From Acutalibacteraceae bacterium (lineage in GTDB: Bacteria > Bacillota > Clostridia > Oscillospirales > Acutalibacteraceae): DNA of 64,000 nucleotides. Positions 8,275 through 55,055 of the stretch are shown one piece after another. Under the pieces are notes generated by a model. That model saw only the letters and a program-made list of their open reading frames with translations. It had not been told where the DNA came from and made no database searches. Within the stretch, counting starts at the first letter, position 1; every line of letters begins with the position of its first letter. Location: the NCBI GenBank assembly GCA_045602945.1, contig JAZSCM010000003.1:29647-93646 (forward strand). The letters run 5' to 3'. Made by a program: the position numbers and the translations under genes.

Positions 8275-8326
8275 CCTTAAATACATATACAATTATGTAT
8301 AATTTGATTTAAAGGGGTCTTTCATT

Positions 8327-9223
8327 ATGAAAAAAAGAATTTTCACAGGCGTAGCTACTGCACTTGTAACACCAATGAATGCCGATGGTTCGGTTAATTT
8401 TGAGCGCTTGGCATCTTTAGTTGACGAGCAGATTGATGGCGGCGTTGATGCCCTTGTTATCTGTGGTACCACTGGTGAAAAATCCACCCTTAGATATGAC
8501 GAGCACCTAAAGGTTATTGAAGTAGCGGCTAAAGCCTGTAGTAAAAGAGTTCCGATTATTGCAGGTACGGGAAGCAACGATACCGTTTATTCGGTTGAGC
8601 TATGTAATGATGCCGAAAGTGTCGGTGCCGATGCCTTTTTAATGGTGACCCCTTACTATAACAAAACCTCACAAACAGGTCTTGTTGCGCATTATAATTA
8701 TATTGCCGATAGGGTTAATAAGCCTATTATTCTTTACAACGTGCCTTCACGCACGGGTGTTGCTATTAAGCCCGAAACCTACAAGGAATTATCAAAGCAC
8801 CAAAATATAGTAGCCACAAAGGAAGCAAACGGCGACCTTTCATCAGTTGCAACCACAAAATATCTTTGCGGTGACGACCTTGATATTTATTCGGGTAACG
8901 ACGACCAGACAGTTCCTATAATGTCGCTTGGCGGCATTGGTGTTATTTCGGTAGCATCAAATATTGCACCTCGGGTTATGCACGATATTTGCGCTGAATA
9001 TTTAAACGGCAACATAGAGTTTGCTTCTAAACTGCAACTTAAACATATAGGTCTTATTAATGCGCTGTTTAGCGACGTTAACCCCGTACCCGTTAAAGAG
9101 GCAATGAATATGTTAGGACTAGACGTTGGTCCTTGCAGACTGCCGCTTTATCCTATGAACGAATCTACAAAAGAAAATCTTAAAAATAAGCTTATTGAGT
9201 GCGGACTTAAACCAATTTTTTAA
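8327..9223 (+). CDS. dapA: 4-hydroxy-tetrahydrodipicolinate synthase
   Basis: 298 aa with GV.TALVTP, GTTGE, YNVPSRTG and the K in the ATKEA context. Confidence 0.95.
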   Translation: MKKRIFTGVATALVTPMNADGSVNFERLASLVDEQIDGGVDALVICGTTGEKSTLRYDEHLKVIEVAAKACSKRVPIIAGTGSNDTVYSVELCNDAESVGADAFLMVTPYYNKTSQTGLVAHYNYIADRVNKPIILYNVPSRTGVAIKPETYKELSKHQNIVATKEANGDLSSVATTKYLCGDDLDIYSGNDDQTVPIMSLGGIGVISVASNIAPRVMHDICAEYLNGNIEFASKLQLKHIGLINALFSDVNPVPVKEAMNMLGLDVGPCRLPLYPMNESTKENLKNKLIECGLKPIF

Positions 9224-9245
9224 AATACACAGGATGTGAAAATCA

Positions 9246-10001
9246 GTGACTAAAATATTACTTTCAGGCGCCTGCGGTATGATGGGCAAAAAAATTGCAG
9301 ACGTTGTATCAAAAAAGGATAATATGCAGATAGTTTGCGGTGTTGATATAGCACAGCAAATTTGCGACTTCCCTATTTACAACAGCTTTGATTCAATTAA
9401 AGAAACACCCGACGTTATAATAGATTTCTCGCACGTTTCGGTTTTAGAAAAACTGCTTAAATATGCTGTTGATAATAATATACCCTGTGTTATTGCTACC
9501 ACAGGCTTTTCGCAAGAGCAAATTTCTGCCATTAAGGAAGCATCTAAGAAAATTCCTATTTTCTTTACTGCAAATATGTCGCTCGGCGTAAATTTACTTT
9601 GTGCTTTAGCTTCAAAGGCGGCTAGTATCTTAGGCGATGATTTTGACGTTGAAATAATTGAAAAACACCACAATCAAAAGCTAGACGCTCCCTCGGGCAC
9701 CGCTCTGATGCTCGCAAATGCCGTAAATTCGCAGTTTGACGATTCATACGTTTATGAGTATGACCGCCACTCAAAGCGCCTTAAAAGGCCTAAAAAAGAG
9801 ATTGGTATTCATTCAATCCGCGGTGGCACAATCGTTGGCGAACACGACGTACTGTTTGCAGGCAGAGATGAAACCGTTACGCTTTCGCACTCGGCTACCT
9901 CAAAAGAGGTTTTTGCAGTGGGTGCAGTTAAGGCGGCAGAGTTTTTAAAGGATAAAGGCATTGGTCTTTACGATATGACCGACGTTCTCTCCTTTAACTA
10001 G
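9246..10001 (+). CDS. dapB: 4-hydroxy-tetrahydrodipicolinate reductase
   Basis: 251 aa with a GTG start. Motifs G..GRMG-like (GACGMMGK), E.HH..K.DAPSGTA and HS.R.G..VGEH are present. Confidence 0.93.
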   Translation: MTKILLSGACGMMGKKIADVVSKKDNMQIVCGVDIAQQICDFPIYNSFDSIKETPDVIIDFSHVSVLEKLLKYAVDNNIPCVIATTGFSQEQISAIKEASKKIPIFFTANMSLGVNLLCALASKAASILGDDFDVEIIEKHHNQKLDAPSGTALMLANAVNSQFDDSYVYEYDRHSKRLKRPKKEIGIHSIRGGTIVGEHDVLFAGRDETVTLSHSATSKEVFAVGAVKAAEFLKDKGIGLYDMTDVLSFN

Positions 10002-10019
10002 TTTAACAAAATATAATAA

Positions 10020-10063
10020 CCCCTCATATAATGTGTTAATCACACTATATGAGGGGTGTTTTT
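10020..10063 (+). terminator. intrinsic terminator after dapB
   Basis: 11-bp stem CCCCTCATATA / TATATGAGGGG followed by TGTTTTT. The right arm also contains the SD (GAGGGG) of the next gene. Confidence 0.65.
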
Positions 10064-10348
10064 ATGTCCGACTATTTAAATCCTATTACTAGTGAAACCG
10101 ACCTCTTATCCTACGAAAACTTTTTAAACGATATTAGGGAATTTGAAAACACCGATGATAAAAAGAATATTTTTGATAAGCTGATAGGAAAACGAATAAA
10201 TATAAAAATTTCAACCGATACAGGTTTATATTCATATTTCGGAGTTTTAAAAAGCGCTCAAAAAGAATATTTAGAGTTATGCCAAAAAGACGGCAGAAAG
10301 CTAATGATTTTAAAACCCGAATCGGTAGTATCAATCACAGTACTTTGA
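10064..10348 (+). CDS. hypothetical small protein
   Basis: 94 aa counted from ATG 10064. The track start at 10049 lies inside the terminator stem. No family recognised. Confidence 0.55.
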   Translation: MSDYLNPITSETDLLSYENFLNDIREFENTDDKKNIFDKLIGKRINIKISTDTGLYSYFGVLKSAQKEYLELCQKDGRKLMILKPESVVSITVL

Positions 10349-11236
10349 GCCTTGTAAAACGTTATTATCTTTAAACGCTTTATTTATTGAATTTAGCACG
10401 TTCTTTTTATCTGCCGACCAAAGCGGTGCTATAAGGTCTTTCTTTGCGCCGTCGCCCGTTAGTCTGTGAATTACTATATCTTTCGGCAAAATACTAATGC
10501 AATCTATTAAAATATCGGTATATTCTTCTAGTGTTAAGGTTTTAAATTTGCCTTTTAAATATTCGTCTGCTAAATCGGTGTTTTTTAGCACGTGTAAAAG
10601 CTGAAGTTTAATACCTGAAGCTCCGCTTTTGCCAACGTAAGAGACAGTTTGTAGCATCATTTCTTTGGTTTCATACGGCAGACCTAAAATTACGTGAACA
10701 ATAACCTCAACGCCTATTGATTTTAAATTTTTAACCGCATTATCAAAAACTGATAATTCATAACCGCGCCTTATATATTCTGCGGTTTTTTTGTGTATCG
10801 TTTGAAGTCCAAGTTCAACCCAAACAGGTTTAATTCTATTTAATTTTTTTAGTAAATTTAAAACCTCTTGCGGTAAACAATCGGGTCTAGTAGCAATAGA
10901 TAGCGCTACTATATCGGGATGATTAATTGCGGCTGTAAATATTTTTTTAAGATAGATAACGTCTGCATAGGTGTTTGTAAAATCCTGAAAATATGCAATA
11001 TATTTGCCGTCATTTATTTTACGCTCTACCCTTTTCTTTGCGTTTTCTATCTGCTTTGTTATATCGCCTGTATTCTTTTCGCAGAAAGTACCTGAGCCGT
11101 CGGCAGAGCAGAAAATACACCCTTTAGAGTGTATTTTGCCGTCCCTTACAGGACAGGTCATACCGCCTGAAAGCGCCAACTTATACACCTTACAGCCGAA
11201 AGTGTTTTTAAGATAACCGTTTAAACCATTATACAT
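10331..11236 (-). CDS. TIGR01212-family radical SAM protein
   Basis: 301 aa with the GMTCPVRDG....GCIFC cluster near the N-terminus, typical of TIGR01212. Confidence 0.85.
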   Translation of the reverse strand: MYNGLNGYLKNTFGCKVYKLALSGGMTCPVRDGKIHSKGCIFCSADGSGTFCEKNTGDITKQIENAKKRVERKINDGKYIAYFQDFTNTYADVIYLKKIFTAAINHPDIVALSIATRPDCLPQEVLNLLKKLNRIKPVWVELGLQTIHKKTAEYIRRGYELSVFDNAVKNLKSIGVEVIVHVILGLPYETKEMMLQTVSYVGKSGASGIKLQLLHVLKNTDLADEYLKGKFKTLTLEEYTDILIDCISILPKDIVIHRLTGDGAKKDLIAPLWSADKKNVLNSINKAFKDNNVLQGSKYCD

Positions 11237-11242
11237 AAAAAT

Positions 11243-11563
11243 CTACTTTCTGTAATAAGAGTAATAAGCAGTTATTACGTCATATTCGCCCGTAACGGTG
11301 TTTTGTCCCTCTAAGGTTACACCGTCGCCGCTAAGCAAAAGATAGTATTTACACTCTAGCGTTTTACAGCGAAAAACGTCTATCTCGCCGCAAATCACTC
11401 GGATTTCATCACCAATTTCGGCAATTCTTCCCTCTTTACCCGCTATTACGTGCTTAACGTTGCCGTCTGCATCGGTTACTCGCCTTGTAACGTACTTAAC
11501 TATTCGCCCGTCAAAGCATTTTAGCACGTCCGGGTTTTCTTTTTTCTTTTTGAATAAGAACAT
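11243..11563 (-). CDS. hypothetical protein
   Basis: 106 aa counted from ATG 11563. The track start at 11578 would overlap the tyrS stop. No family recognised. Confidence 0.55.
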   Translation of the reverse strand: MFLFKKKKENPDVLKCFDGRIVKYVTRRVTDADGNVKHVIAGKEGRIAEIGDEIRVICGEIDVFRCKTLECKYYLLLSGDGVTLEGQNTVTGEYDVITAYYSYYRK

Positions 11564-11567
11564 TTTA

Positions 11568-12788
11568 TTAAACCACAAACTTAATAATTACCTTTTTACC
11601 CTTTTTAACGATGACGCCGTCGGTGAAGTTTTCAAGCGCTATTGTGTGTGTAGCGTTGGTGATTTTCTCGTCGTCCACACTAACGCCGCCTTGCTGAACC
11701 AGTCTTCTTGCCTCTCCGTTAGAGGATGCTAGACCGCCCTTTACCATAAGGGTTAAAATACCGATTTTGCCGTCTGTAAAATCAGAAGCTTCAAGATTTA
11801 CAGTTGGCATATTATCGTGGATACCTGCACCAGAGAATACTGCGCGTGAGGTTTCCTGAGCCTTGGTTGCTTCTTCCTCACCGTGAACTAGTTTTGTAAG
11901 TTCAAATGCCAAGATTTCCTTAGCGGTGTTAAGCTGTGAGCCTTCCCAAGCGTCCATCTTGTCAATTTCTTCAAGCGGTAAGAATGTAAGCATACGAATA
12001 CACTTTAAAACGTCGGCATCGGCAACGTTGCGCCAATACTGATAGAATTCATAAGGAGAGGTCTTTTCAGGGTCAAGCCATACAGCGCCGCCAACGGTTT
12101 TACCCATCTTCTTACCTTCGGAGTTAAGAAGTAAAGTAATGGTCATTGCATACGCATCTTTAGAAAGTTTCTTTCTTATAAGCTCGGTACCGCCTAACAT
12201 ATTTGACCACTGGTCGTCACCGCCAAACTGCATATTACAGCCGTATTCCTTAAATAGATGATAGAAGTCGTAGCTTTGCATTATCATATAGTTAAATTCA
12301 AGGAAGGAAAGGCCTTTTTCCATTCTCTGCTTGTAGCACTCTGCTCTTAACATATTGTTAACCGAGAAGCACGCGCCAACGTCGCGAAGCATATCGATAT
12401 AATTAAGTTTTAGTAGCCAATCGGCATTATTTACCATTTGAGCCTTGCCCTCGCCAAACTCGATAAAGCGGCTCATCTGCTTTTTAAAGCAATCGCAGTT
12501 ATGCTGAATTTGTTCAGGTGTCATCATTGAACGCATATCGGTTCTGCCTGATGGGTCGCCGATATAACCTGTGCCGCCGCCAATAAGAGCTATCGGCTTA
12601 TTTCCTGCCATCTGCAGTCTCTTCATAAGGCAAAGCGCCATAAAGTGACCAACGTGCAGACTGTCAGCCGTAGGGTCAAAGCCGATATAGAATACAGCCT
12701 CGCCGTTGTTGATTAAATCCTTAATTTCCTTTTCGTCTGTTACCTGTGCAATAAGACCTCTGGCAACTAACTCCTCATAAATTTTCAT
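11568..12788 (-). CDS. tyrS: tyrosine--tRNA ligase
   Basis: 406 aa with a HIGH motif (HVGH), a KMSKS-like motif (KMGKT) and a C-terminal S4 domain. Confidence 0.95.
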   Translation of the reverse strand: MKIYEELVARGLIAQVTDEKEIKDLINNGEAVFYIGFDPTADSLHVGHFMALCLMKRLQMAGNKPIALIGGGTGYIGDPSGRTDMRSMMTPEQIQHNCDCFKKQMSRFIEFGEGKAQMVNNADWLLKLNYIDMLRDVGACFSVNNMLRAECYKQRMEKGLSFLEFNYMIMQSYDFYHLFKEYGCNMQFGGDDQWSNMLGGTELIRKKLSKDAYAMTITLLLNSEGKKMGKTVGGAVWLDPEKTSPYEFYQYWRNVADADVLKCIRMLTFLPLEEIDKMDAWEGSQLNTAKEILAFELTKLVHGEEEATKAQETSRAVFSGAGIHDNMPTVNLEASDFTDGKIGILTLMVKGGLASSNGEARRLVQQGGVSVDDEKITNATHTIALENFTDGVIVKKGKKVIIKFVV

Positions 12789-26411: not shown

Positions 26412-26487
26412 GATCCATTAGCTCAGCTGGCAGAGCACTTGACTTTTAATCAAGGTGTCCGGGGTTCGATTCCCCGATGGGTCACCA
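26412..26487 (+). tRNA. tRNA-Lys (anticodon UUU), CCA encoded
   Basis: 76 nt folded by hand. The acceptor stem GATCCAT/ATGGGTC has one G-U pair. D-loop AGCTCAGCTGG, anticodon stem CTTGA/TCAAG with loop CTTTTAA, T-arm GGTTCGATTCC, terminal ACCA. Confidence 0.92.
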
Positions 26488-43100: not shown

Positions 43101-43550
43101 TCAGGCTCCGCCTTGTATCGGTACTATTAATCCTATTGTTTTTGCATACTCGTATACCGACGAATTATTAACCTTTTTTAATTTGTAGATTTCTTCATCG
43201 TTTTCAGAATTTAAAATCATTGTATTTCTTTTAAATTCAACCGCATATTTGTCAAGTTCAGTATTTTCAGCTTCGCTAACGGAATTATTTGAGAAATAAA
43301 ACGTAATAACGTTTTCTTGAAAGTCGTATTTATAATGTGGCGATGGAAATAGTTCGCCTGTGCCATCATCTAAAACTTCAATTTTAAATAAACGAAACTT
43401 TTCATCACTTATAAATTCTATACCCTGCAATTTATCTGTTTTAAAAATCCATATTGTATTTGCAAGTTTATCTTTACCCTGAGAATTATCTGAGCAACCG
43501 GACAAAAGTAAAATCGAAAGTGCTAAAAAGCAACATAATATTTTTTTCAT
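43101..43550 (-). CDS. hypothetical lipoprotein (paralogue A)
   Basis: 149 aa with signal peptide and lipobox LLSGC. It is a close paralogue of 44157-44612. Confidence 0.8.
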   Translation of the reverse strand: MKKILCCFLALSILLLSGCSDNSQGKDKLANTIWIFKTDKLQGIEFISDEKFRLFKIEVLDDGTGELFPSPHYKYDFQENVITFYFSNNSVSEAENTELDKYAVEFKRNTMILNSENDEEIYKLKKVNNSSVYEYAKTIGLIVPIQGGA

Positions 43551-43613: not shown

Positions 43614-44111
43614 TTATACACAACACAGGGGACAGTCCCCTGTGTTTTTTATAAAGTATTGCGTATTCACCCCATAACCACAAAAACACACTCTATACCA
43701 ATTAGCACTCGTCTTTTTTATAGACAACTCTGCATAATAATAATGGGTTTCATAATCATCATACATCCAACAAATAGAAGTATCTACACCAACTTCTCCT
43801 TTAATTGCTGATTCTATATTTTCCTGAGACCACTTCTGTTCATCAAAAACACTATACATATCATCAGCACAAATATCAAAAATTACTGTTAGGTATGGAT
43901 TTCTTTCTGCAAAATCTTTATACTCAGCTTTAACAAGTTTAGCCGTACTAGACAAAAAAACCCCATATTGTTCCGACAACACACCTGTTAATTCAGTATT
44001 GATTTCAGAATATGATTTATTGCATGAACAACAAAAAATCATAATAAACAAAATACTTAAAATCCATTTGAAGTAATTTTTGAATTTACACATACGTCCA
44101 ATTCGCTCCAT
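43614..44111 (-). CDS. hypothetical exported protein flanked by palindromes P2 and P1
   Basis: 165 aa with an N-terminal hydrophobic segment ending in CCSC. The start lies 5 nt from P2 and has no SD. Codons NTGDCPLC near the C-terminus (...NTGDCPLCCV) are encoded by P1. Confidence 0.6.
   Translation of the reverse strand: MERIGRMCKFKNYFKWILSILFIMIFCCSCNKSYSEINTELTGVLSEQYGVFLSSTAKLVKAEYKDFAERNPYLTVIFDICADDMYSVFDEQKWSQENIESAIKGEVGVDTSICWMYDDYETHYYYAELSIKKTSANWYRVCFCGYGVNTQYFIKNTGDCPLCCV
43622..43646. repeat. palindrome P1: AACACAGGGGAC-A-GTCCCCTGTGTT
   Basis: Read directly. 12-bp arms, followed by T6 on the plus strand. Confidence 0.95.
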
Positions 44112-44115
44112 TGCC

Positions 44116-44145
44116 CGGACACAGGGGACGGTCCCCTGTGTGATA
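44116..44145. repeat. palindrome P2 (30-mer CGGACACAGGGGACGGTCCCCTGTGTGATA)
   Basis: Read directly. Identical 30-mer to P3 and P4. Confidence 0.95.
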
Positions 44146-44156
44146 CTATTTTTTCA

Positions 44157-44612
44157 CTATGCTCCGCCTTGTATCGGTACTATTAATCCTATTGTTTTGG
44201 CATACTCGTATACGGATGAACAATTAACCTTTTTTAATTTGTAGGTTTCATCATCATTTTCAGAATTTAAAATCATTGTATTTCTTTTAAATTTAACCGT
44301 ATATTTGTCAAGTTCAGTATCTTCTGCTTCGCTAACGGAATTATTTAAGGAATAAAAGGTAAGAACATTGTCTTGAAAAACATATTTATCGAGTGGCATT
44401 GGAATAAGTTCGCCTGTGCCATCACCTAAATCTGCAATTACCAAATTACGACAATATCCGTCGTCAGTAAATTCTATACCTCGCAATTTATCTGTTTTGA
44501 AAATCCATATCGTGTTTGAAAGTTTATTTTTGCCCTGTGAATTATCTGAGCAACCGGACAAAAGTAAAATCGAAAGCGCCAAAAAGCAACATAAAAATTT
44601 TTTCTTTAACAT
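44157..44612 (-). CDS. hypothetical lipoprotein (paralogue B)
   Basis: 151 aa counted from ATG 44612 (AGGAG 11 nt upstream; the track start is 44621). Lipobox LLSGC. Confidence 0.8.
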   Translation of the reverse strand: MLKKKFLCCFLALSILLLSGCSDNSQGKNKLSNTIWIFKTDKLRGIEFTDDGYCRNLVIADLGDGTGELIPMPLDKYVFQDNVLTFYSLNNSVSEAEDTELDKYTVKFKRNTMILNSENDDETYKLKKVNCSSVYEYAKTIGLIVPIQGGA

Positions 44613-44626
44613 ATTATACATATCTC

Positions 44627-45385
44627 CTATTTTTTCACAACGCTGCTAAAGGGATTTAGGTTATCAAAATATATTAGCTTTAATTTATTCTGTTCTATAA
44701 GCGCCATTATTCTCAAAGCAATAAAATACGGACCGATACCTAGTCTATACTTATTTGAAACAGTCACAATAACGTCGGCAACTATATTTTTCTCCTTTGT
44801 GATACTGTCAAGAATAAAACCGTCATAGAAGTTTTCATCTACCGAGATTATAGAGCCGTTAACTACTGCTCGCATTTTAGCGTTTTCATTTTTAAGCCTT
44901 GTCCACATATCGCTGTAAAACTGTTTGATATTTAAGTTAAGCTTTTGCTCGAGTGGCAAAAACTCGCAATATTTATCACTTGGCACCAAAGACCAACTTA
45001 AACATTCCTCAGGTAAATCTATATACGATATTTCACATTCTTTATCCTTTAAGAGATAGCACGTATATGCAAACGCGCATAGATTATGCGGTTCACGGCT
45101 TTTCCAGATGCGTATAGATTGATGAGTTTCGGCTAACTTTAACAATCGAAATTTATCGTTTTCTTGTCCTTTAAAAAACTCATAAATCTCACGCTTTGAA
45201 GGTTTAAATTGAAACTCCAGTTTATCAAAAACTTCTTTTCGGTCTTGCATACTTTCGTCATTAGCAATCGGTCCGATATCTAAGGCGTAGCCGATACACA
45301 GCACGTTATCAAATTCGTTACTCTCTGACATTTCCATATTTCTTTTGGTAAGTTCATCAAAAACTACATTAAACATAGCATACAC
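44627..45385 (-). CDS. DUF1835 / DUF3658 domain protein
   Basis: 252 aa (GTG 45385) or 249 aa (ATG 45376). IRIWKSREPHNLCAFAYTCYLL is DUF1835-like and VVNGSIISVDENFYDGFIL is DUF3658-like. This is recall, not searched. Confidence 0.7.
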   Translation of the reverse strand: MYAMFNVVFDELTKRNMEMSESNEFDNVLCIGYALDIGPIANDESMQDRKEVFDKLEFQFKPSKREIYEFFKGQENDKFRLLKLAETHQSIRIWKSREPHNLCAFAYTCYLLKDKECEISYIDLPEECLSWSLVPSDKYCEFLPLEQKLNLNIKQFYSDMWTRLKNENAKMRAVVNGSIISVDENFYDGFILDSITKEKNIVADVIVTVSNKYRLGIGPYFIALRIMALIEQNKLKLIYFDNLNPFSSVVKK

Positions 45386-45407
45386 GACCTAAAGTAATAT
45401 TTTTATC
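45375..45407. repeat. 33-nt direct repeat, copy 1 (carries the leader and start of the DUF1835 gene)
   Basis: ATAGCATACACGACCTAAAGTAATATTTTTATC, 31/33 identical to 45522-45554. Confidence 0.9.
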
Positions 45408-45490
45408 CCGCAAGATACCCGCTTGTAAAACAACTCCTCATTGCCAAACAAAATTCAAGTAAAAACGGGAAAGTTAGTATAAGTGTTAAA

Positions 45491-45524
45491 GTCGGACACA
45501 GGGGACGGTCCCCTGTGTGATATA
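45491..45524. repeat. palindrome P3 (34-mer GTCGGACACAGGGGACGGTCCCCTGTGTGATATA)
   Basis: Read directly. Identical 34-mer to P4. Confidence 0.95.
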
Positions 45525-45554
45525 GCATACACGACCTAAAATAAAATTTTTATC
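45522..45554. repeat. 33-nt direct repeat, copy 2 (abuts P3)
   Basis: ATAGCATACACGACCTAAAATAAAATTTTTATC. The ATG of copy 1 is replaced here by AT plus the palindrome. Confidence 0.9.
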
Positions 45555-45574
45555 TATAAGCAATTTAAGATTTA

Positions 45575-46564
45575 TCAAAACAATCCAGCAATAGTTGAAC
45601 AAATTATAGCGAAGCACGGAAAAGTGATTATAGTTGCTAAAACATCTATAATTATGCCTTTGATTTTTAAATCCTTTTTTTGCTCTTTAAAGTATAAAAC
45701 GATTGATATTATAACAGCAAAGAGTGAAAGAAAACCTACAACAATGCTTGTCGGATATCCTATAGGGCTGAATCTGATTCGGTTTGTAGCTACTGTTACG
45801 AACCAAAAAAGTAACGATGCAAATCCTAATCCACCAAAAAATGAGGTGGACAATGTTAAAAGGCTACTTTTTTTGGTACAGTTTGCAAAAATAGTTTTTC
45901 TAAAAATTAAGCCTAACAGACCGATTAATAACAAAGTCATTCCAAAAACAATTCTATAGAATGCATTTTCAAAAAGTGAGAAGCGTAAAGCGTGGAAGAC
46001 AGTTTGCTCGTCTGCTCCGCCTATTATTGGAATATTTCCATTTTCTTTGCTGTAAATTAAAGCCGATATGATTGTAATAACTATGGTTAAAATTACAATT
46101 GCAGATCCTAAGACGGTTGCTGTAATAGAAGATATTTTAAAAGTTTTAATTTTTCCGCTGTCGGTTTTTATCTTTTTTATAATGCGGTCTTTAAATCTTC
46201 TAAAGCCTTTATATGAAGCTATAAAGGTAACAATCGCCACTATGCAATAAGAAATTAAAGCAAAATGCTGTAAAGATACCTCTAACGCAAACTCTAAGTG
46301 AAATCTTGAATGATCCCATTTACCCCAAAAACCTACAGCAAACATCGAAACAAAAAGGGATATCGGCATAATAAAGGTCATTAAATAGTCGAATTTTTTA
46401 TTAGTTGGACTAAAAAAGCCGAAAACAGCAGATGCGATTATACAGACAAAGGCCAACAAAAAAATTGATAAAGACAGCAATCCCCATTTGTCAAACACGC
46501 TACACACCATCATTAACGCAGGTGTAACTATAAACGGCATTATGTAATATAAAAATTTTTTCAT
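45575..46564 (-). CDS. hypothetical polytopic membrane protein
   Basis: 329 aa, about 9-10 TM segments. SD AAAGGAGGAATTTT-ATG. Confidence 0.75.
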   Translation of the reverse strand: MKKFLYYIMPFIVTPALMMVCSVFDKWGLLSLSIFLLAFVCIIASAVFGFFSPTNKKFDYLMTFIMPISLFVSMFAVGFWGKWDHSRFHLEFALEVSLQHFALISYCIVAIVTFIASYKGFRRFKDRIIKKIKTDSGKIKTFKISSITATVLGSAIVILTIVITIISALIYSKENGNIPIIGGADEQTVFHALRFSLFENAFYRIVFGMTLLLIGLLGLIFRKTIFANCTKKSSLLTLSTSFFGGLGFASLLFWFVTVATNRIRFSPIGYPTSIVVGFLSLFAVIISIVLYFKEQKKDLKIKGIIIDVLATIITFPCFAIICSTIAGLF

Positions 46565-46589
46565 AAAATTCCTCCTTTTTAAGACTGGG

Positions 46590-47312
46590 TTATTCTACTT
46601 CGGTTTTATTTTTCTTTATACTTTGCATTGAAAATTCAAAATGCTGCAAATACTTATTATCCCAATTTTCTGTTATCCAGCTTCCACGTAGACCGCCTCT
46701 AACCATAAATCCATCAACATCGGTCACAAACAATGCGGGGAGTGCTAAATAATCACCTGTTTCTTTATCAGAAACTCTGCCGTAGTCACTTATATACGTT
46801 TTACGGGCTTTTCCAAATATAACAACTTCGCCGCCCGCACAAAGTTCGGGTGGATTATTGTATAAACTTTTATTTCTTTCGTTAAAATCAGTAACGTACG
46901 CCTTTAGGTAATCGATTGTGGGATTTTCACTAGGTAGATAAATTTTAAAATTTATTTCTTGTTCTTGTGGGTTTTCAAAACAATACTCTACAAATTCGCC
47001 GCCTTCATATATTTTTATTGATTTTAAAGAATATAAATCATCATCGAGCGACTTTATTGTTAGAATCTGTTCGGGATTTAACTCTCTAAAAGTTTTTTTG
47101 AAGGTCCAGTCTGCTAGTTCGTCAGTTAAAAACCAATCAAGCATTTCATCAATATTTTTAAAGCCACACGAACGAGTAGGCAAACCATCGTCTCTATATA
47201 CACCTTTATCCGATGAAGTATTTTCTTTATCAGAGTCGGTATCTTTTTGCGAACATCCACAAAACGATATAAGTAATCCTAAAGTTAATAATAAAGCAAT
47301 TATTTTTTTCAT
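46590..47312 (-). CDS. hypothetical lipoprotein
   Basis: 240 aa with a signal peptide ending LLISFCGC. Confidence 0.75.
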   Translation of the reverse strand: MKKIIALLLTLGLLISFCGCSQKDTDSDKENTSSDKGVYRDDGLPTRSCGFKNIDEMLDWFLTDELADWTFKKTFRELNPEQILTIKSLDDDLYSLKSIKIYEGGEFVEYCFENPQEQEINFKIYLPSENPTIDYLKAYVTDFNERNKSLYNNPPELCAGGEVVIFGKARKTYISDYGRVSDKETGDYLALPALFVTDVDGFMVRGGLRGSWITENWDNKYLQHFEFSMQSIKKNKTEVE

Positions 47313-47359
47313 AAAAATTCCTCCTTTTTAGAGAGAATATTGATTTTTGTGTATTCAGG

Positions 47360-48292
47360 CTAATTAAATTTATTTGCCTGAACTGTTACACTAAACTCTT
47401 CTGTTTCGCCTGTTGCAGTGATAGAAGTACCACTAAAAACATAAACAGGCTGCATAACGATATTATCTAAATTTCTATCTTGTGTCCAATAAGCTAGTGA
47501 AACTTCTTCGAATATAAGCTCTGAGGGGGTGTTTTCCATTTGTACAAAGGCCTTACCCTCTTTAAAACGATTAAGTGCTTCTTGCATAGAAATCAATTTA
47601 ACCGTTTTTTTATCCTCATATTCCCTAAAATTATATGTGACGTAACATACTTCTCCATTTGCGTTAATCTCTACATATATTTGGGAGTTTCCGCCAATGT
47701 CAAGCCCATCCTTCTGTTTTGGGTAAAAACTGATTCCTATTGTCAGTTTAGTAGTTCCTTCACTCTTAGATGTTGTAGTTGATTCGCTTGTTGACCACGT
47801 TTTGCCGATTTTACTACTAAAAAGCCCATATTTTTCTAAATATTCCTTAGCAATTTTATAGCATTCTTTTTCAGTCAAGGTGATTTCTCGGCTTGTGTGT
47901 TCAACCCCTGTTTTGTACGAAAAGCAACCAAACTGATCGATATCTAAAAATTTATCTTCGCCACCGACACCTTTTGATTTATAAACTCGCGTACCGTCAT
48001 CTCGAAGTTTATAATCGTTGATATCAAAGCCAAAATCCGAAACAATTTTATAATCTGTCAGCTTTGGATTTTGATAAATAAAAGCTGAGTCTTTAGCAAT
48101 TTGAGCTTCAAGTTTATCTGCATCGAAGTTAAATTTAGTGTTTGTTTCGGGTTTAGTATTTTGTGTTGTTGGAAAATCAATTTCGCAGCCTAATTGAGCG
48201 CTGTACGTTTTTGAAAACACTATCATCGTAGACGAGCCGATTATTACAGCTATCAAGGCGACTAAAATTGTGATTTTTAATTTCTTTTTCAT
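47360..48292 (-). CDS. hypothetical signal-anchored extracytoplasmic protein
   Basis: 310 aa with one N-terminal TM. No family recognised. Confidence 0.75.
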   Translation of the reverse strand: MKKKLKITILVALIAVIIGSSTMIVFSKTYSAQLGCEIDFPTTQNTKPETNTKFNFDADKLEAQIAKDSAFIYQNPKLTDYKIVSDFGFDINDYKLRDDGTRVYKSKGVGGEDKFLDIDQFGCFSYKTGVEHTSREITLTEKECYKIAKEYLEKYGLFSSKIGKTWSTSESTTTSKSEGTTKLTIGISFYPKQKDGLDIGGNSQIYVEINANGEVCYVTYNFREYEDKKTVKLISMQEALNRFKEGKAFVQMENTPSELIFEEVSLAYWTQDRNLDNIVMQPVYVFSGTSITATGETEEFSVTVQANKFN

Positions 48293-48319
48293 AAAAAATC
48301 CTCCTTAGTGGGTGTGGTG

Positions 48320-48871
48320 TCATTCCCCTATTGTTTCGCATTTTTGTGTTTTAAGTTTTTTGTTTTTAATCAAAAGCAATACGCTTAAAATAATGACTGC
48401 CAGTGAAATTGTTATATGCAAGTAATTTACATACTTCAGGTAAACCAACGGTGTTGTTCCAAACCGTACGTATAACTGCCTTATGTTCATATATGCCTGC
48501 GTATAGTCATTAACGGCAGGAAATAAGATAAAGATAAATAGACTTGCAACCGAGGTAATCAAAAAAGAAATATTAAACTTTAGTTTTATTTGTTTTTTGA
48601 ATACTGCAATAGTTAAAAGCACGGCGGTTAAAAGGCTAATAACTACAAATATAATTTGAATAGCAGCAATAAAAAGAGTTGGCAAAAGAACTGTAAAGAT
48701 TAGTGTTGCACCGCGGCCGATTGGTATATGTAAGCTGTCAACTCCCATTTTATAAAAGAAAAAGTTATCAATTATATTAAGTGTGCTGATACAGCAATAA
48801 AAAAGCGTTGCAATATCGTAAATAAAAACAAACGGTGGGAAAATAAATTTTTTAAGAATATTATTTTTCAT
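48320..48871 (-). CDS. hypothetical integral membrane protein (paralogue A')
   Basis: 183 aa, about 5 TM segments. Paralogue of 50067-50615. Confidence 0.75.
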   Translation of the reverse strand: MKNNILKKFIFPPFVFIYDIATLFYCCISTLNIIDNFFFYKMGVDSLHIPIGRGATLIFTVLLPTLFIAAIQIIFVVISLLTAVLLTIAVFKKQIKLKFNISFLITSVASLFIFILFPAVNDYTQAYMNIRQLYVRFGTTPLVYLKYVNYLHITISLAVIILSVLLLIKNKKLKTQKCETIGE

Positions 48872-48920
48872 TTTTTACTCCTTTTTTTACAAATAAAGAA
48901 ATAATTAATTCTAAAATCCA
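48861..48920 (-). pseudogene. 3'-terminal remnant (19 codons plus stop) of a paralogue of the 50605-51063 membrane-protein gene, cut off by P4
   Basis: The minus strand reads WILELIISLFVKKGVKNEK*, against WILELIISLFVKRGCKNEK* at the end of 50605-51063. 33 nt are identical, and the homology stops 1 nt from the P4 34-mer. Confidence 0.8.
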
Positions 48921-48921
48921 G

Positions 48922-48955
48922 GTCGGACACAGGGGACGGTCCCCTGTGTGATATA
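48922..48955. repeat. palindrome P4 (34-mer, identical to P3)
   Basis: Read directly. Confidence 0.95.
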
Positions 48956-48971
48956 AAATTTTATGATAACA

Positions 48972-49877
48972 TCATTTATATTCTACAGGAAGTTTTAGGC
49001 CCTTATAATATTCCTCGCCGTTATCATTCAAAATCCTGTCAGTTGTGCAAAATACAGTATCACCATTTACTAACAAATCTTTTTTTAACACAAATTGCAA
49101 TAAGCCGTTTTCACTTTGGGCATGCAAATCAACAAATATAGTATCATCTAAAACACGAATGGTTTCTTTGTTGGTTGTAGTATAGGCTCGTTTGATAACC
49201 GATAAGATTTTGTTGTACGTTGCCGTATCTATAGATATGTCTGTTTTGCTAGAATCGGCGGTATTCATATAAAAGCAGTGATAATTTTCTATGTTATCAT
49301 AATATAAAATTGCTTGTTCTAAATGCTTAGATGAACACCATATCCCACCCAATTCGCTATACAACAAATCCTTATTTTGTGTATCACCTAAAGTGTAAAG
49401 CCTATAAATATCATTTTCTCTTGGAAAGAAAAAGTTAGCAACCTTTGATATGAAATTTTGATTTTGCATAGCGTTGTTTTCGGTAATATGGACGTTTGCT
49501 ATCGCCTTTTTATCAATATCTGTTATTGGATTTAAAGTTTTAACGTTTTTTAGGTAATCACCCAGTCGAACGTATGTGTTTCCATCCAATTCTAATTCTT
49601 TTGCATTATAATCTTCTATTTGAATAATTACGCCCGTGTCTTTATTTGCGTTTTTATATTCTATATTTTTAAAAGCGTTGGATATTGATATACAAGCAAT
49701 TGGAAATATAAGAACTATACCTATGCTAAGAAATATAATTGATATTTTCTGCTTTTTAGGTTTTTTTCTAACACTAAAAGCTATGAATAAAGATATACCG
49801 GCAATTAACGCAAGTAATCCTAAAACAGATAGAAAAATTATAAAAGCAAAAAATATCAAACTTGCGAATGCGCCCAA
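48972..49877 (-). CDS. hypothetical membrane-anchored protein between P5 and P4
   Basis: 301 aa with a TTG start 6 nt after GGAGGAG. Two N-terminal TM segments, then a soluble domain. Confidence 0.7.
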   Translation of the reverse strand: MGAFASLIFFAFIIFLSVLGLLALIAGISLFIAFSVRKKPKKQKISIIFLSIGIVLIFPIACISISNAFKNIEYKNANKDTGVIIQIEDYNAKELELDGNTYVRLGDYLKNVKTLNPITDIDKKAIANVHITENNAMQNQNFISKVANFFFPRENDIYRLYTLGDTQNKDLLYSELGGIWCSSKHLEQAILYYDNIENYHCFYMNTADSSKTDISIDTATYNKILSVIKRAYTTTNKETIRVLDDTIFVDLHAQSENGLLQFVLKKDLLVNGDTVFCTTDRILNDNGEEYYKGLKLPVEYK

Positions 49878-50005
49878 ATATATCTCCTCCTAAATTTTAA
49901 TTTCACTAATTCAAATCATATCGTTCAATAGCGGACATTTGATTATTCATATATTCTTTTATTGTTAAATAGGCATCTTTTAAAGCTTGATTAGTGCCTG
50001 ACATT

Positions 50006-50038
50006 AGAGTACACGGGGGACCGTCCCCTGTGTACTCT
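50006..50038. repeat. palindrome P5: AGAGTACACGGGGGAC-C-GTCCCCTGTGTACTCT (16-bp arms, 1 mismatch; inverted relative to P2-P4)
   Basis: Read directly. The reverse complement has the consensus left arm and a central G. Confidence 0.9.
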
Positions 50039-50066
50039 ATAAATTCCTCCTTTAAAAAGACAAAGG

Positions 50067-50615
50067 TTATTCCCCTGCGGTTTCGCTTTTTTGCGATTTT
50101 AGTTTTATATTTTTTATCAAAAGTAATACGTTTAAAATAATTACTACCAACGAAATTATCATATATATGCGATTTGCATATTGCAGGTAAAACGGCATTG
50201 TACCAAGCAATATGTATATCGGTCTTATGGTCATATATGCCTGAACAGCGTATTCGCCGGCAGGTATTAACATAAAGATAAATAAGCTAACAACCGAGGT
50301 AATCAAAAAAGAAATATTAAACTTTAGTTTTATTTGTTTTTTGAATACTGCAATAGTTAAAAGCACGGCGGTTAAAAGGCTAATAACTACAAATACAATT
50401 TGAAAAGCAGATCCTAAAAGAGTTTGAAATATAAAAATTAAGGTTGGCGTGTCAGCGCCGCCGATTATTGTATGTAAGCCGTCCGCACCAATTTTACAGG
50501 TGAAAAAGTTATCTATTATACTAAGCGTGATAATATAGCACCAAAAACGCGTTGCTATATCGTAAATAAAAACAAATGGTGTGAAAATGAATTTTTTAAG
50601 AATATTATTTTTCAT
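50067..50615 (-). CDS. hypothetical integral membrane protein (paralogue B')
   Basis: 182 aa, about 5 TM segments. Confidence 0.75.
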   Translation of the reverse strand: MKNNILKKFIFTPFVFIYDIATRFWCYIITLSIIDNFFTCKIGADGLHTIIGGADTPTLIFIFQTLLGSAFQIVFVVISLLTAVLLTIAVFKKQIKLKFNISFLITSVVSLFIFMLIPAGEYAVQAYMTIRPIYILLGTMPFYLQYANRIYMIISLVVIILNVLLLIKNIKLKSQKSETAGE

Positions 50616-51063
50616 TTTTGCATCCCCTTTTTACAAATAAAGAAATAATTAATTCTAAAATCCAGAATATTAATGCGGTTATAATTCCTACGTATAGGGC
50701 AATTAAAACGTTAAGTGAAATATGTAAAACCCGTGCATATCTTATAAGATAGGCAACTGTACCTAAACTTATGCTACCAATATAAAAGATAAGTCTTGGC
50801 GCTTTCATCTTTTTTCTTAATAAAAATACTATTACAACCAAAACAGCCGACACAATAAAGCTAATTATTATTTGACCTGCAAAGGTGTTAAATAGCACGG
50901 TTAAAAAGGTTTTATCATTTAAAAACAATCTTACGTAGTTATCAAAACCTATAAAACTAGGACTTGGAGAAATCAAATTTCCAATACCCAAAGCGACAAA
51001 CACCATTATGAGCGGTGCTATTAAAAGTGCTATAAAAATCAGTAATTCCTTTATTTTTTTCAT
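50605..51063 (-). CDS. hypothetical integral membrane protein
   Basis: 152 aa, 4 TM segments. 11-nt overlap with the downstream gene. Confidence 0.75.
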   Translation of the reverse strand: MKKIKELLIFIALLIAPLIMVFVALGIGNLISPSPSFIGFDNYVRLFLNDKTFLTVLFNTFAGQIIISFIVSAVLVVIVFLLRKKMKAPRLIFYIGSISLGTVAYLIRYARVLHISLNVLIALYVGIITALIFWILELIISLFVKRGCKNEK

Positions 51064-52369: not shown

Positions 52370-53323
52370 TTACTCGGTTAAATCTTCAAGTGCAGATAAA
52401 ACTGAATTTTCATCAATACCTGCTATTACAAACGTATAGTAATACCCGTTTTTTTGAAATTCTCCTTTGTATTTACCGGCAGAATTTTTGCATACAATAA
52501 CGTCGATATTATTTATATTGGTTTTTTTGAGTTGCTCATGGGTGTCGAAAATACATCCAAATCCAACGTACTTTTTATCGCAAATTAAAAGGTGAAGAGT
52601 GCCTTTACCGTCCGGAGTAGAATATCTAATATAACCGTTTTCCACTTCATTATAATATTCAAGACCGTCTTCTGTGGGTATATCAAAGTAAAAATTAGCA
52701 GTTTCGAAATCTTCTGGCAATACAAAAGCATATTTTTCAGTAAATTCTTTCTTAGAAACTTCTTTCCTATCTACCATTCTCCTTCCGCTTTCAACAAAAC
52801 ATTCAACTGTGTTGATATTAATTTGAGGGGAATTAGTTTGATATTTATTCAGCAAATCGAGAAGTTTTTGCTCGTTTATCATATATTTATCCTCTGCCTT
52901 ATAAACTTCAAAACTTCTTTCCTCGTCCTTTACACCGCTATCTCCACACATTTCTTCTTTTATGATAACTCCATCATTTAAAAGATATAGTTGTTCTGAA
53001 AAGGCACCATATTTTATTAGATTTGCTTTTTTAGAATCAACCATACTGTTTTTTTCGCTATATGTAATTGTATTGGAATATACATATTTTTCTAAAAACG
53101 TCCAATCGTTACTATTGCTAATTTGTATTTCTTCAGAGCTGTTATTTGGGATTATTGATAAACAATTAATATTTGATGCATCATCAGAGCCTGTTAGCGC
53201 GCGAATCAAAGTTCTGGCGTTTTCTTGTGATGAAGCATTATTTTGCTGCAAATCCTCATTTTTACAAGCCGACATACTTAATGCTAATAAAATACAAATG
53301 GTAAATAATAAAAGTTTTTTCAT
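52370..53323 (-). CDS. hypothetical lipoprotein
   Basis: 317 aa with lipobox LSMSAC. 4-nt overlap with the AraC gene upstream. Confidence 0.8.
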   Translation of the reverse strand: MKKLLLFTICILLALSMSACKNEDLQQNNASSQENARTLIRALTGSDDASNINCLSIIPNNSSEEIQISNSNDWTFLEKYVYSNTITYSEKNSMVDSKKANLIKYGAFSEQLYLLNDGVIIKEEMCGDSGVKDEERSFEVYKAEDKYMINEQKLLDLLNKYQTNSPQININTVECFVESGRRMVDRKEVSKKEFTEKYAFVLPEDFETANFYFDIPTEDGLEYYNEVENGYIRYSTPDGKGTLHLLICDKKYVGFGCIFDTHEQLKKTNINNIDVIVCKNSAGKYKGEFQKNGYYYTFVIAGIDENSVLSALEDLTE

Positions 53324-54243
53324 TTAATCTCTTCCCTTCTCTTTTGTACCGAGGTTTTTCTAAAGTCGGCAGGGGTGTTGCCTGTTATTTCTTTAAAAAT
53401 TCGGTTGAAGTGCTGAACTGTTTTAAAGCCAACCATATTTGCAACGTCTTTTATGGGCACGTCGGTAAAAGCCAGTTGCTTTTTAGACATAGTTATACGG
53501 TAGTTTGTCAGATACTCAACCGCAGTACAGCCAAGCTCCTGCTTCATAAGATAATTAAGCGTGGTGTGGTTGATGCCGACGTTGGCAGAAATTTTTGGAA
53601 GTGTTAAATCTTCGCTATAGTGCGCCTCTAAATAAAGAACAGCCTCACGAAGCTTTGGATTTTGAATTATAGGGATATAGTCTGACTTTTGGTCTTCATA
53701 GCCATAGCCTAAAAGACCGTACATACGCTCGAGTGCAATAATTACCTCCATAAAATGCGCACGGCCGCGGCAGGACCAATAAAAGTCTCTCTGGTCCCTT
53801 AATTCCTCCAGCATATAATCGGCGGCGTTTTCGATTTTTTCGGCTTGTGTTTGAGCAATCGGTATAACGTAAGGCTTATCTGTAAACGGCTTTAACATAA
53901 ACATATCGTGCGTGGTGGCAATATCGCCGTATTTTGCAGAGCGCAAAAGCTTAAAGGTCATATTCATATTTAAAAAGGTAGGATGAAAATAGATACAGGT
54001 GTATCTTGCCCTTGTTTTAGAAAGTAGCACGGGGTTTTCGGTTTCATCAAAGCATATAAAAGACGGTGCGGCGGCTTTTATTTTTTTATCACCCACCGAA
54101 AATTCTAATTTTCCGTAATTTAAAACTATTAGCAAAAAGTATTTTCCCTTGATATCCAAATCATCAAGCGGAGCGTTTTTTATACACTCAACCTGTGCTA
54201 TTTTTCCATGATTATATTTTTTGCCAACTGTAACGTGTCGCAT
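53320..54243 (-). CDS. AraC-family transcriptional regulator (first gene of the island operon)
   Basis: 307 aa with an N-terminal cupin-like half and a C-terminal AraC double HTH (GINHTTLNYLMK...G.T..EYL...R...). Confidence 0.9.
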   Translation of the reverse strand: MRHVTVGKKYNHGKIAQVECIKNAPLDDLDIKGKYFLLIVLNYGKLEFSVGDKKIKAAAPSFICFDETENPVLLSKTRARYTCIYFHPTFLNMNMTFKLLRSAKYGDIATTHDMFMLKPFTDKPYVIPIAQTQAEKIENAADYMLEELRDQRDFYWSCRGRAHFMEVIIALERMYGLLGYGYEDQKSDYIPIIQNPKLREAVLYLEAHYSEDLTLPKISANVGINHTTLNYLMKQELGCTAVEYLTNYRITMSKKQLAFTDVPIKDVANMVGFKTVQHFNRIFKEITGNTPADFRKTSVQKRREEIK

Positions 54244-54296: not shown

Positions 54297-54306
54297 GAAC
54301 AATTCT

Positions 54307-54368
54307 TTATCTAATTTGCAATTTCTTTTATCTAATCTGCAACTTTTTTATCTAATCTTAAATTTGTT
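54307..54368. repeat. three tandem direct repeats TTATCTAAT(T/C)T(G/T)(C/A)AA, spaced 21 and 20 nt
   Basis: Units start at 54307, 54328 and 54348, immediately upstream of the candidate -35. Confidence 0.8.
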
Positions 54369-54376
54369 AATAAAAA

Positions 54377-54415
54377 ATACACAACATTTAAATTTCTCAA
54401 ATGTTGTGTATTTTT
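54377..54415. terminator. bidirectional intrinsic terminator after the pseudouridine synthase gene
   Basis: 13-bp stem ATACACAACATTT / AAATGTTGTGTAT, 9-nt loop, A6 and T5 flanks. Confidence 0.75.
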
Positions 54416-55055
54416 AATCTGTATTAAATTTAAAAAATTCCTCGTTTGGTTCTGCAGTGTAAGTAATCGGTTTATTGGTTTTAGGGTGAATAAATGATAA
54501 AGTATGCGACCAGAGTGAAATACCAGTAAAGTTTTCCTTAGAGCCGTATCTTCTATCCCCGCAAAGCGGAAAACCGCGAGAAGCAAACTGCACCCTTATT
54601 TGATGCGTTCTGCCTGTTTCTAACTCTATTTTAAGCAAGGAATAAGTAGCGCCGTTTTGCTCAAATTCTTTTAAAGTTTCATAATATAAAACAGCTTTTT
54701 TAACACCCTTGCGCTCCTTTTTAACAACGTAGGACTTATTTTTTTGCCTATCGTAATATAAAAGGTCTATTAACGTGCCGTTTTTTTCTTGCAAAGCGCC
54801 GTTTACTACTGCAAGATACCCTTTCTTAAATTTGTTCTCGGTTATTTGCTTAGATAACTGCGCCGCAGAGCGAGGGTTTAGCGCATAGACCATTACACCG
54901 CCTGTTGTACGGTCAAGCCTATGAACAACAAACGCTTGTTTTCCCAAATTTTGCTCTAATAGGTGCGGAACGTTTTCACCCTCGGCATTTTGTGAACTAA
55001 CACCGTAGGGCTTAACTATAACGGCAATATCCAGGTCACTGTATAAAATTTTCAT
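54414..55055 (-). CDS. RluA-family pseudouridine synthase (short)
   Basis: 213 aa with the catalytic HRLDRTTGG motif and GRTHQIR. Confidence 0.88.
   Translation of the reverse strand: MKILYSDLDIAVIVKPYGVSSQNAEGENVPHLLEQNLGKQAFVVHRLDRTTGGVMVYALNPRSAAQLSKQITENKFKKGYLAVVNGALQEKNGTLIDLLYYDRQKNKSYVVKKERKGVKKAVLYYETLKEFEQNGATYSLLKIELETGRTHQIRVQFASRGFPLCGDRRYGSKENFTGISLWSHTLSFIHPKTNKPITYTAEPNEEFFKFNTD

Follow-up and report, generated by a model that had tools for sequence, protein, structure and literature searches.

What are five copies of a palindrome rich in guanine and cytosine (GC) doing within 6.4 kb of an AT-rich gene island in an Acutalibacteraceae bacterium? The island lies in a 64,000-nt stretch of contig JAZSCM010000003.1 (assembly GCA_045602945.1, positions 29,647 to 93,646 of the forward strand), which we call the window and to whose first letter all window coordinates below refer. 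The palindromes, P1 to P5 (Table 1), had been noticed in a sequence-only reading that named mobile elements first among its candidates, either repetitive extragenic palindromes (REPs) with their RAYT transposases or hairpins used by HUH/Y1 transposases, and that also considered attC-like cassette sites, mRNA hairpins and operators. Comparison with other genomes supports the first of these proposals through two lines of evidence: the motif flanks transposase genes elsewhere, and related strains differ where the palindromes lie. The palindromes are probably non-autonomous hairpin repeats of the REP or terminal inverted repeat (TIR) kind, served in trans by a REP-like Y1 HUH transposase of the TIRYT type.

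The palindromes themselves are readily recovered by computation. The pattern ACACAGGGGACNGTCCCCTGTGT, searched with up to two mismatches, matched the 64-kb window five times, exactly at 43623, 44119, 45496 and 48927 and with one mismatch at 50011, and had no match in the 100 dinucleotide-preserving shuffles that served as the control. A looser search with a 17-nt core and up to three mismatches returned nothing in the window beyond the same five sites, so that both the claim of five GC-rich palindromes and the claim, made by eye, that the remaining window holds no further copy are confirmed. The core GGGGACNG is present on the plus strand at the five palindromes only, against about 0.65 occurrences expected by chance. 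An extra CNGTCCCC at 3378 is found inside a coding sequence without arms and was taken as chance. The copies are 23-35 nt long, with the consensus ACAC[A/G]GGGGAC-N-GTCCCCTGTGT in the window. As first described, P2, P3 and P4 carry the identical 30-mer CGGACACAGGGGACGGTCCCCTGTGTGATA, P3 and P4 are identical over a 34-mer, and the flanks of P2-P4 (CGG...GATA) are absent from P1, whose arms are A/T-extended; palindromes of this A/T-extended type are found also at loci L001, L016, L017 and L019 of the genome scans described below. P5 had been described as inverted, with 16-bp arms. Its centre base is indeed inverted relative to P2-P4, and the arms measure 16-17 bp when one G.T or A.C position is included.

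The connection to a mobile element comes from scans with the exact 23-mer against 185,579 species genomes and then metagenomes, which returned 19 and 17 stretches, respectively (loci are labelled L001 onward). The hosts of the 19 genome stretches are almost all metagenome-assembled genomes (MAGs) of rumen or gut Clostridia (Acutalibacteraceae, Oscillospiraceae, Ruminococcus). The associated recombinase to which the sequence-only reading had looked in carriers of the motif exists in other genomes as a Y1 HUH gene with the motif inverted at its flanks. Open reading frames (ORFs) at L005:2765-3514 and L014:482-1276 match Pfam Y1_Tnp at 2e-16 and NCBIfam REP_Tyr_transpos at 77-78 bits, where the cutoff for the latter is 80 bits. 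The L005 protein has 249 aa, and the family to which it belongs (about 248-251 aa, RayT in the naming of one source) comprises more than 4100 clusters from Clostridia, with Oscillospiraceae, Ruminococcus and other Clostridia as hosts. The HUH motif (N59-H60-x-H62) and Y119-I-H-Q-N-P (Y-x3-NP) are invariant in 22 of the 22 aligned transposases, and the sole sequence match of the family in the PDB is E. coli TnpAREP (4ER8). A C-terminal extension of about 110 aa bears a conserved G229-x-S-x-R-Q-x2-R-L-x-G and gives sub-threshold matches only, to the helix-turn-helix (HTH) families HTH_7, HTH_23 and HTH_28 (E 0.03-0.2). Every transposase clade was seen in several samples at a single conserved chromosomal site, as is usual for RAYTs: between the genes for LexA and BofA, between tyrS and dapB, or at others.

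Five clades were compared (P0001/2, P0016, P0085, P0098 and a 39%-identical relative, L059), and in all five a hairpin upstream of the transposase gene recurs, identical and inverted, downstream of it. The repeats are, in the same order, ACACAGGGGACGGTTCTATGTGT, AGACAGGGGACGGTTCTATGTCT, CAATCAGGGGACGGTTCTATGATTG, ATGACACGGGGACGTTTCGTTTGTCAT and ACACAGGGGACAGTCCCC(TGTGT). In clades P0016, P0085 and P0098, the upstream core begins 62-63 nt ahead of the ATG and the downstream core 10-13 nt past the stop; the P0001/2 clade has composite inverted repeats, in which the arm is carried twice, at other distances. The inverted sequence around these genes is the 11-nt arm ACACAGGGGAC, with core GGGGACNG, of the window palindromes. 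The perfect 23-mer itself adjoins the genes of one clade, where it is the gene-distal unit of the upstream composite repeat in L005, L014 and L032, about 160 nt before the ATG, and fragments of transposase genes abut a palindrome in L006, L010 and L035. An independent transposase locus, L049 (1492-5951), supports a link between the repeats and duplication. There, an AP-endonuclease/DMP19 gene pair is present twice in direct orientation, as 1430-bp copies with 99.5% identity, and the transposase gene and a 178-aa gene lie between the two. Both copies start at a hairpin repeat, and in the first the DMP19-like gene is cut short at the repeat upstream of the transposase.

The way in which the flanking repeats vary bears on what is recognized. 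Their core, GGGGACG(G/T)T, is constant, and the outer stems take the forms ACACA/TGTGT, AGACA/TGTCT, AATCA/TGATT and ATGACA/TGTCAT. The 32 distinct imperfect copies compared have 91% of their cells paired and changes on both sides in three of the 11 pairs, with a covariation score of 0.264 versus 0.069 in shuffles and at most 0.068 with the partners slid. The hairpin is maintained by compensatory changes. In the upper stem of the transposase-flanking hairpins, pairing runs through G.T and is available on one strand only, which points to recognition of a folded single strand.

Elsewhere, the 23-mer loci have unrelated flanks, hosts with a GC content from 0.30 to 0.61 and any of the four centre bases, and the sites are intergenic in tandem, convergent and divergent gene contexts. 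The half-site ACACAGGGGAC also occurs in these loci alone, in direct repeats and as the imperfect hairpin ACACAGGGGACGGTTCTNTGTGT, from which P2-P4 differ at three positions (GTTCTA against GTCCCC). The motif was not found in 2.9 million viral contigs or in the PLSDB plasmids, and the plasmid relatives of the transposase are distant only; a phage or plasmid origin was dropped on these grounds. Three observations on the motif stand by themselves. At L022:11051, L023:1071, L024:272 and L030:7798 (GC 0.56-0.58), the 23-mer lies within the longer palindrome AATGCGGGG-ACACAGGGGACNGTCCCCTGTGT-CCCCGCATT; these are apparently non-rumen metagenome contigs that may derive from Acidobacteria-like hosts. 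Parts of the arm are tandemly repeated beside many palindromes, for example three times as CAACACAGGG or twice as GTCCCCTGTGTTC (L036:1190-1260, L002:4545-4590, L009:7125-7215, L011:3850-3890 and L033:155-200), in a manner suggestive of stutter or of recurrent cutting and rejoining at the foot of the hairpin. L012, a contig labelled Coriobacteriaceae with a GC content of 0.61, carries tandem units of about 21 nt, CGG-ACACAGGGGAC-A-GTCCCC, at 560-650 and 6480-6600, whose leading CGG is shared with P2-P4 of the window.

The second line of evidence comes from six contigs, L053-L058, which were found via homologues of two island proteins and are 83-97% identical to the island. Gene content and order vary strongly among L053, L055, L056, L057 and L058, and the three palindrome-free contigs (L055, L056 and L058) have a simpler island. 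The sequence-only reading had counted an invariant locus as evidence against mobility; the locus varies, and the differences start at or next to palindromes. In the window, the duplicated segments 48319-48921 (B) and 50066-50665, which are 82% identical, flank the module from P5 to P4, and segment B begins exactly after P4. The alignment to L055 breaks off at 50038, where P5 has its outer edge, and is regained at 48886, and L055 has paralogue A followed by the same ribosome-binding site directly before the ATG of the second paralogue. The 1151 bp that the window has in addition consist of P5, the 32-aa ORF, the 301-aa gene, P4 and the 50-nt 3' remnant of the 152-aa gene. L053 and L054 have an identical P5 and have kept P4, with the coding-strand downstream flank ACTCTATT of the P5 type instead of CCGAC. 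P5 and P4 enclose their module in the topology in which the repeats enclose the transposase gene, GGGGACGG being read on the coding strand at the upstream side and in inverted form at the downstream side, an arrangement that would allow mobilization of the bracketed module.

The other three palindromes lie at joins as well. P3 has on either side a diverged copy of a unit made up of the upstream gene's 3' end and a 33-nt intergenic stretch; within one of these copies, 45408-45490 is an 85-nt remnant of the alternative 3' end of that gene. In L056 and L058, which are without P1-P3, the upstream gene runs into the 33-nt spacer and the DUF1835 gene, and there is a single lipoprotein gene. L057 has P3 with the same upstream flank and another downstream gene, and a lone palindrome where two lipoprotein paralogues meet. 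In the window, the predicted 165-aa ORF, which is absent from L056, L057 and L058, is wedged between lipoprotein paralogues at 44157-44621 and 43101-43550 (86% nt identity). The 154-aa lipoprotein gene stops 15 nt before P2, and the ATG of the 165-aa ORF follows 5 nt beyond P2, which stands where the ORF would have its ribosome-binding site. P1 encodes the last eight codons of the ORF (...GDCPLCCV*) just before the stop and may have replaced its original C-terminus. The statement that palindromes are always at module junctions is thus upheld in large part by strain comparison, with the qualification that palindrome-free junctions also exist.

Table 1. Positions of the palindromes and of the features that adjoin them in the window
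Feature	Position	Strand	Remarks
165-aa ORF	43614-44111	minus	Between P2 and P1
P1	43622-43646	no strand	AACACAGGGGAC-A-GTCCCCTGTGTT, A/T-extended type; single-stranded DNA hairpin -13.1 kcal/mol, z -7.9
P2	44116-44145	minus	Coding strand TATC-ACACAGGGGAC-C-GTCCCCTGTGT-CCG
Join around P3	45375-45554	minus	33-nt copy B 45375-45407; remnant 45408-45490; P3; 33-nt copy A 45522-45554
P3	45491-45524	minus	Unit and orientation as P2
183-aa membrane-protein paralogue B	48320-48871	minus	Paralogue A at 50067-50615
3'-end remnant of 152-aa gene	48872-48921	minus	Compare 50616-50665; own ribosome-binding site; first part of duplicated segment after P4
P4	48922-48955	minus	34-mer identical to P3; abuts start of duplicated segment 48319-48921
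301-aa membrane-protein gene	48972-49877	minus	With 32-aa ORF, bracketed by P5 and P4 in inverted orientation
32-aa ORF (MSGTNQALKDAYLTIKEYMNNQMSAIERYDLN)	49906-50004	minus	ATG 1 nt past P5; present in L053 too
P5	50005-50039	no strand	TAGAGT-ACACGGGGGAC-C-GTCCCCTGTGT-ACTCTA; 17-bp arms, one mismatch
Ribosome-binding site	50042-50056	minus	GGAGG at 50046-50050; P5 lies between site and next ATG

The island in which these joins lie has a GC content of 0.30-0.35 from 41 to 54.3 kb versus 0.40-0.44 around it. Its genes are all on the minus strand, and most of their products are without a Pfam match; they include small lipoproteins, membrane proteins and one DUF1835/DUF3658 protein, with AraC and XRE regulators at the edges. 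Several other features of the window may be recorded here. At 54370-54418, at the end of the pseudouridine-synthase gene, there is an AT-rich hairpin (ATACACAACATTT...AAATGTTGTGTAT) with a minus-strand T-run; its upper stem shows compensatory changes in L053, and its outer arms, ACACAA/TTGTGT, resemble the palindrome arms. A possible regulator binding array occupies 54305-54365, ahead of the AraC gene (53320-54243): it comprises three TTTTATCTAATCTGCAACTT-like direct repeats, each about 20 nt long, that L053 retains and L017 retains in part. The window has one tRNA gene, at 26412-26484.

How might such repeats have reached the island? By analogy with E. coli TnpAREP and IS608 TnpA, whose biochemistry is established (PMC6006769, PMC3479197), the transposase would bind the folded single strand at the GGGGAC apex and would cut and rejoin single-stranded DNA at the replication fork, seeding intergenic copies. 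The perfect palindrome may represent two arm cores abutted around one free base and would then be the smallest substrate; Quentin et al. noted that a central deletion in an inverted dimer would yield the perfect-palindrome form (PMC6006769). Once present, the hairpins could be join-points for the duplication, replacement and insertion of neighbouring genes, which would account for the position of every window copy at a joint of diverged duplicated segments or beside a strain-specific module. In Salmonella, REPs are known as join-points of tandem duplications, and a role of the window palindromes in cassette shuffling is plausible. Effects on mRNA, whether attenuation, protection of 3' ends or the uncoupling of a ribosome-binding site at P5, would likely be by-products. 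A bolder proposal is that hairpins and Y1 transposase together make up a gene-capturing and duplicating system, in which inverted hairpin pairs bracket cargo and modules enter or duplicate at the join-points, producing hypervariable, cassette-like islands in rumen Ruminococcaceae; we regard this as tentative and rather doubtful.

A number of results weigh against assigning the palindromes to a transposase-served repeat family. A tblastn search of the window with four family members found no Y1 transposase, and the contigs of the related strains gave no match either. The earlier claim that no recombinase is encoded in the window is thereby upheld for Y1 transposases, the one kind checked. A related Ruminococcus sp. 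carries its transposase gene between tyrS and dapB; the syntenic interval of the window is occupied by other genes and is free of the repeat. As a separate observation, the block of asd, dapA, dapB and tyrS at 7536-12788 has 65-73% nt identity to Ruminococcus sp. GCA_022767785.1, which puts the bacterium among Ruminococcus-like Oscillospirales. Exact 23-mers number only one or two per representative genome. The pattern used to collect palindromes fixes the arms, so the conservation of the arms across hosts is in part a selection effect, and the covariation signal derives from some three stem types in copies that are related to one another. GTAG or GTGG was seen at the hairpin foot in 0 of 145 distinct instances, the feet being (A)ACAC, TATC/CCG or AGAGT, and it is the apex of the hairpin that is conserved rather than the foot, a departure from the canonical REPs of Enterobacteria and Pseudomonas with their GT[AG]G. 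Among the related contigs there are also indels without palindromes, namely two extra genes at L053:8321-9122 and the lack in L055 of window segments 48294-41262 and 52350-51078, and palindrome-free breakpoints fall at a repeated ribosome-binding-site/ATG stretch, AAGGAGGAWTTTTTATGAAAAA (e.g., 46556, 47305 and 48285). Finally, the six related contigs yielded no clean pair of an empty and a filled site, and every palindrome junction also differs in the neighbouring genes, which makes transposition inseparable from arrival with a module.

Where among known systems do these hairpin repeats belong? The closest likeness is to the little-studied TIRtrons, which are RAYT-like genes with inverted GGGGWSAS repeats, some of them self-complementary and dispersed, described from Stenotrophomonas, Acidobacteria and others, with Clostridia not mentioned (Di Nocera et al. 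2013, PMC3733652). The TIRYT enzymes correspond to TnpAY1 subclass 2.1, with a C-terminal HTH, and to RAYT group 1 of Bertels, and no REP-like secondary structures were found for this subclass (Quentin et al. 2018, PMC6006769); group 1 has been noted in Clostridia (Bertels et al. 2017, PMC5581495). In the genomes compared here, inverted repeats likewise stand at a fixed distance from a RAYT-like Y1 HUH gene, whose product exceeds E. coli TnpAREP in length and ends in a tail that may be HTH-like (the matches to HTH families being weak). Some of the repeats can pair with themselves and are scattered as small families, dimers or clusters. GGGGACAG, the type of P1 and of L005/L037, fits GGGGWSAS exactly, and GGGGACGG is off at one position. 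Judged from sequence by its length, possible HTH tail, repeat motif and host class, the transposase is probably a member of TIRYT, subclass 2.1 and RAYT group 1. The differences are that the hosts here are rumen and gut Clostridia, from which this kind of system is not known to have been described, that the flanking repeats are true hairpins with covarying stems, in contrast to what is reported for subclass 2.1, and that the window copies are perfect 23-nt palindromes consisting of two arm cores only. A hairpin with covariation, the perfect-palindrome form and Clostridia as host group would thus fit as additions to the TIRtron/TIRYT kind. Canonical REP/REPIN-RAYT systems share with the present one the short extragenic GC-rich palindromes in several copies, the inverted repeat around a single-locus Y1 transposase gene (here in the five clades of other genomes and not in the window), the inverted-unit doublets (L040 and L009) and the sites at gene ends and duplication join-points. 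However, few copies were seen here, and hosts that differ widely in GC content have the core in common, unlike the lineage-specific classical REPs.

The alternative that survives best is that the palindromes act primarily in RNA, as intercistronic terminators, attenuators or hairpins that protect 3' ends in the minus-strand operon, and that they travel with genes rather than being mobile themselves. Folding energies of the five copies as single-stranded DNA are -10.6 to -13.3 kcal/mol, well under those of shuffles. All five are intergenic or at gene ends, and they resemble the stable GC-rich stem-loop with which an intrinsic terminator or mRNA stabilizer follows a stop codon. Elsewhere, an A-run precedes and a T-run follows many copies, in the manner of bidirectional terminators, and in the Ruminococcus MAG L017 a palindrome stands where the window and L053 have an ordinary AT-rich terminator hairpin after the pseudouridine-synthase gene. 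However, the minus-strand sequences that follow P2, P3, P4 and P5 (CCGGGCAA, CCGACTTT, CCGACCTG and ACTCTAAT, respectively) contain no U-tract, as the sequence-only reading had correctly stated, and a terminator-like look is confined to the plus strand of P1 (a T-run) and, weakly, of P2. Six copies in the genome scan (L002, L003, L005, L007, L011 and L014) lie between divergent genes, which is not what a terminator family would show, and identity over 22 nt across hosts with a GC content of 0.30-0.61 is unexpected for terminators that evolved independently. P5 parts a ribosome-binding site from its ATG. The arm forms fixed-distance inverted repeats around the transposase gene, and in L005 the repeat lies upstream of the promoter of that gene, a link that a terminator role leaves unexplained. 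Rfam, at gathering and at permissive thresholds, has no RNA family at the palindromes. The mRNA hairpin or processing role offered earlier as an alternative is possible as a side effect but does not account for the transposase link, and as the primary function we consider it unlikely.

Less probable still are two further alternatives, to each of which we would assign a very small share. The first takes the palindromes for duplex operators of a dimeric HTH protein, the candidates being the island's AraC or XRE regulators and the transposase, which would repress through its C-terminal HTH. Perfect 11-bp inverted arms around a free centre base are classic operator geometry, the regulator genes stand at the island borders, and the HTH signal in the transposase, although weak, is there. 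Against this, the transposase-flanking relatives are imperfect, with one-strand G.T pairing and covarying outer stems that speak for a folded single strand, the sites after stops and between a ribosome-binding site and an ATG are non-promoter positions, and the hosts that carry the motif do not share the island regulators. The second would have the palindromes be ends or miniature derivatives (PATE-like) of multi-copy IS200/IS605 elements rather than of a single-copy REP-type transposase. The two have in common a Y1 HUH enzyme and the recognition of single-stranded DNA hairpins, with strand-specific insertion without target duplication to be expected, and many transposase contigs are only about 1 kb long, as they would be for repeated elements. 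Yet each clade has one conserved chromosomal locus in several samples, no tnpB partner adjoins the transposase genes in the loci viewed, the flanking repeats are one sequence inverted rather than distinct left and right ends, and both the Y-x3-NP motif and the structural relative by sequence, TnpAREP rather than IS608 TnpA, set the enzyme apart.

That the palindromes are integron-type attC sites bounding gene cassettes, another candidate of the sequence-only reading, is extremely improbable in spite of their position between short, promoterless genes of one orientation and of modules that vary by strain, given that attC sites are defined by an R''/L''-L'/R' organization, a GTTRRRY core, extrahelical bases and a length of about 57-141 nt, whereas these are perfect palindromes with 11-bp arms, 23-34 nt in length, that have none of these features, on which Rfam is silent, and for which a Y1 transposase link was found and no tyrosine-recombinase link. 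A guanidine-II-like or other riboswitch was dropped for GGGGACGG, where the centre base varies freely and there is no Rfam match, and CRISPR and adapter-artefact readings were rejected on the sequence and on recurrence in many independent assemblies.

REP/RAYT systems are, to our knowledge, known almost only from Proteobacteria, and we know of no established DNA partner or function for the largest RAYT-like group (group 1, subclass 2.1 or TIRYT). A literature search with the 11-mer arm returned unrelated eukaryotic primers only and no mention in a bacterial context. A family with more than 4000 protein clusters in gut and rumen Clostridia now has a conserved, covarying hairpin partner, and the repeats also explain many of the breaks in metagenome assemblies around transposase genes. 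The close strains offer a natural set in which palindromes appear together with duplications, gene replacements and strain-specific modules; the hairpins may cause these rearrangements or may only accompany them. If the gene-capture proposal were true, an integron-like outcome would be reached by single-strand HUH chemistry, and the supposedly repeat-less subclass 2.1 or group 1 would have hairpin partners. The locus supplies concrete substrates (P2, P5 and the gene flanks) and a setting in which to ask whether the enzymes mobilize hairpins, whether these make the island plastic and to what extent they perturb operons, as at P5. The finding bears on the biology of HUH transposases and on genome plasticity in the Firmicutes of the rumen.

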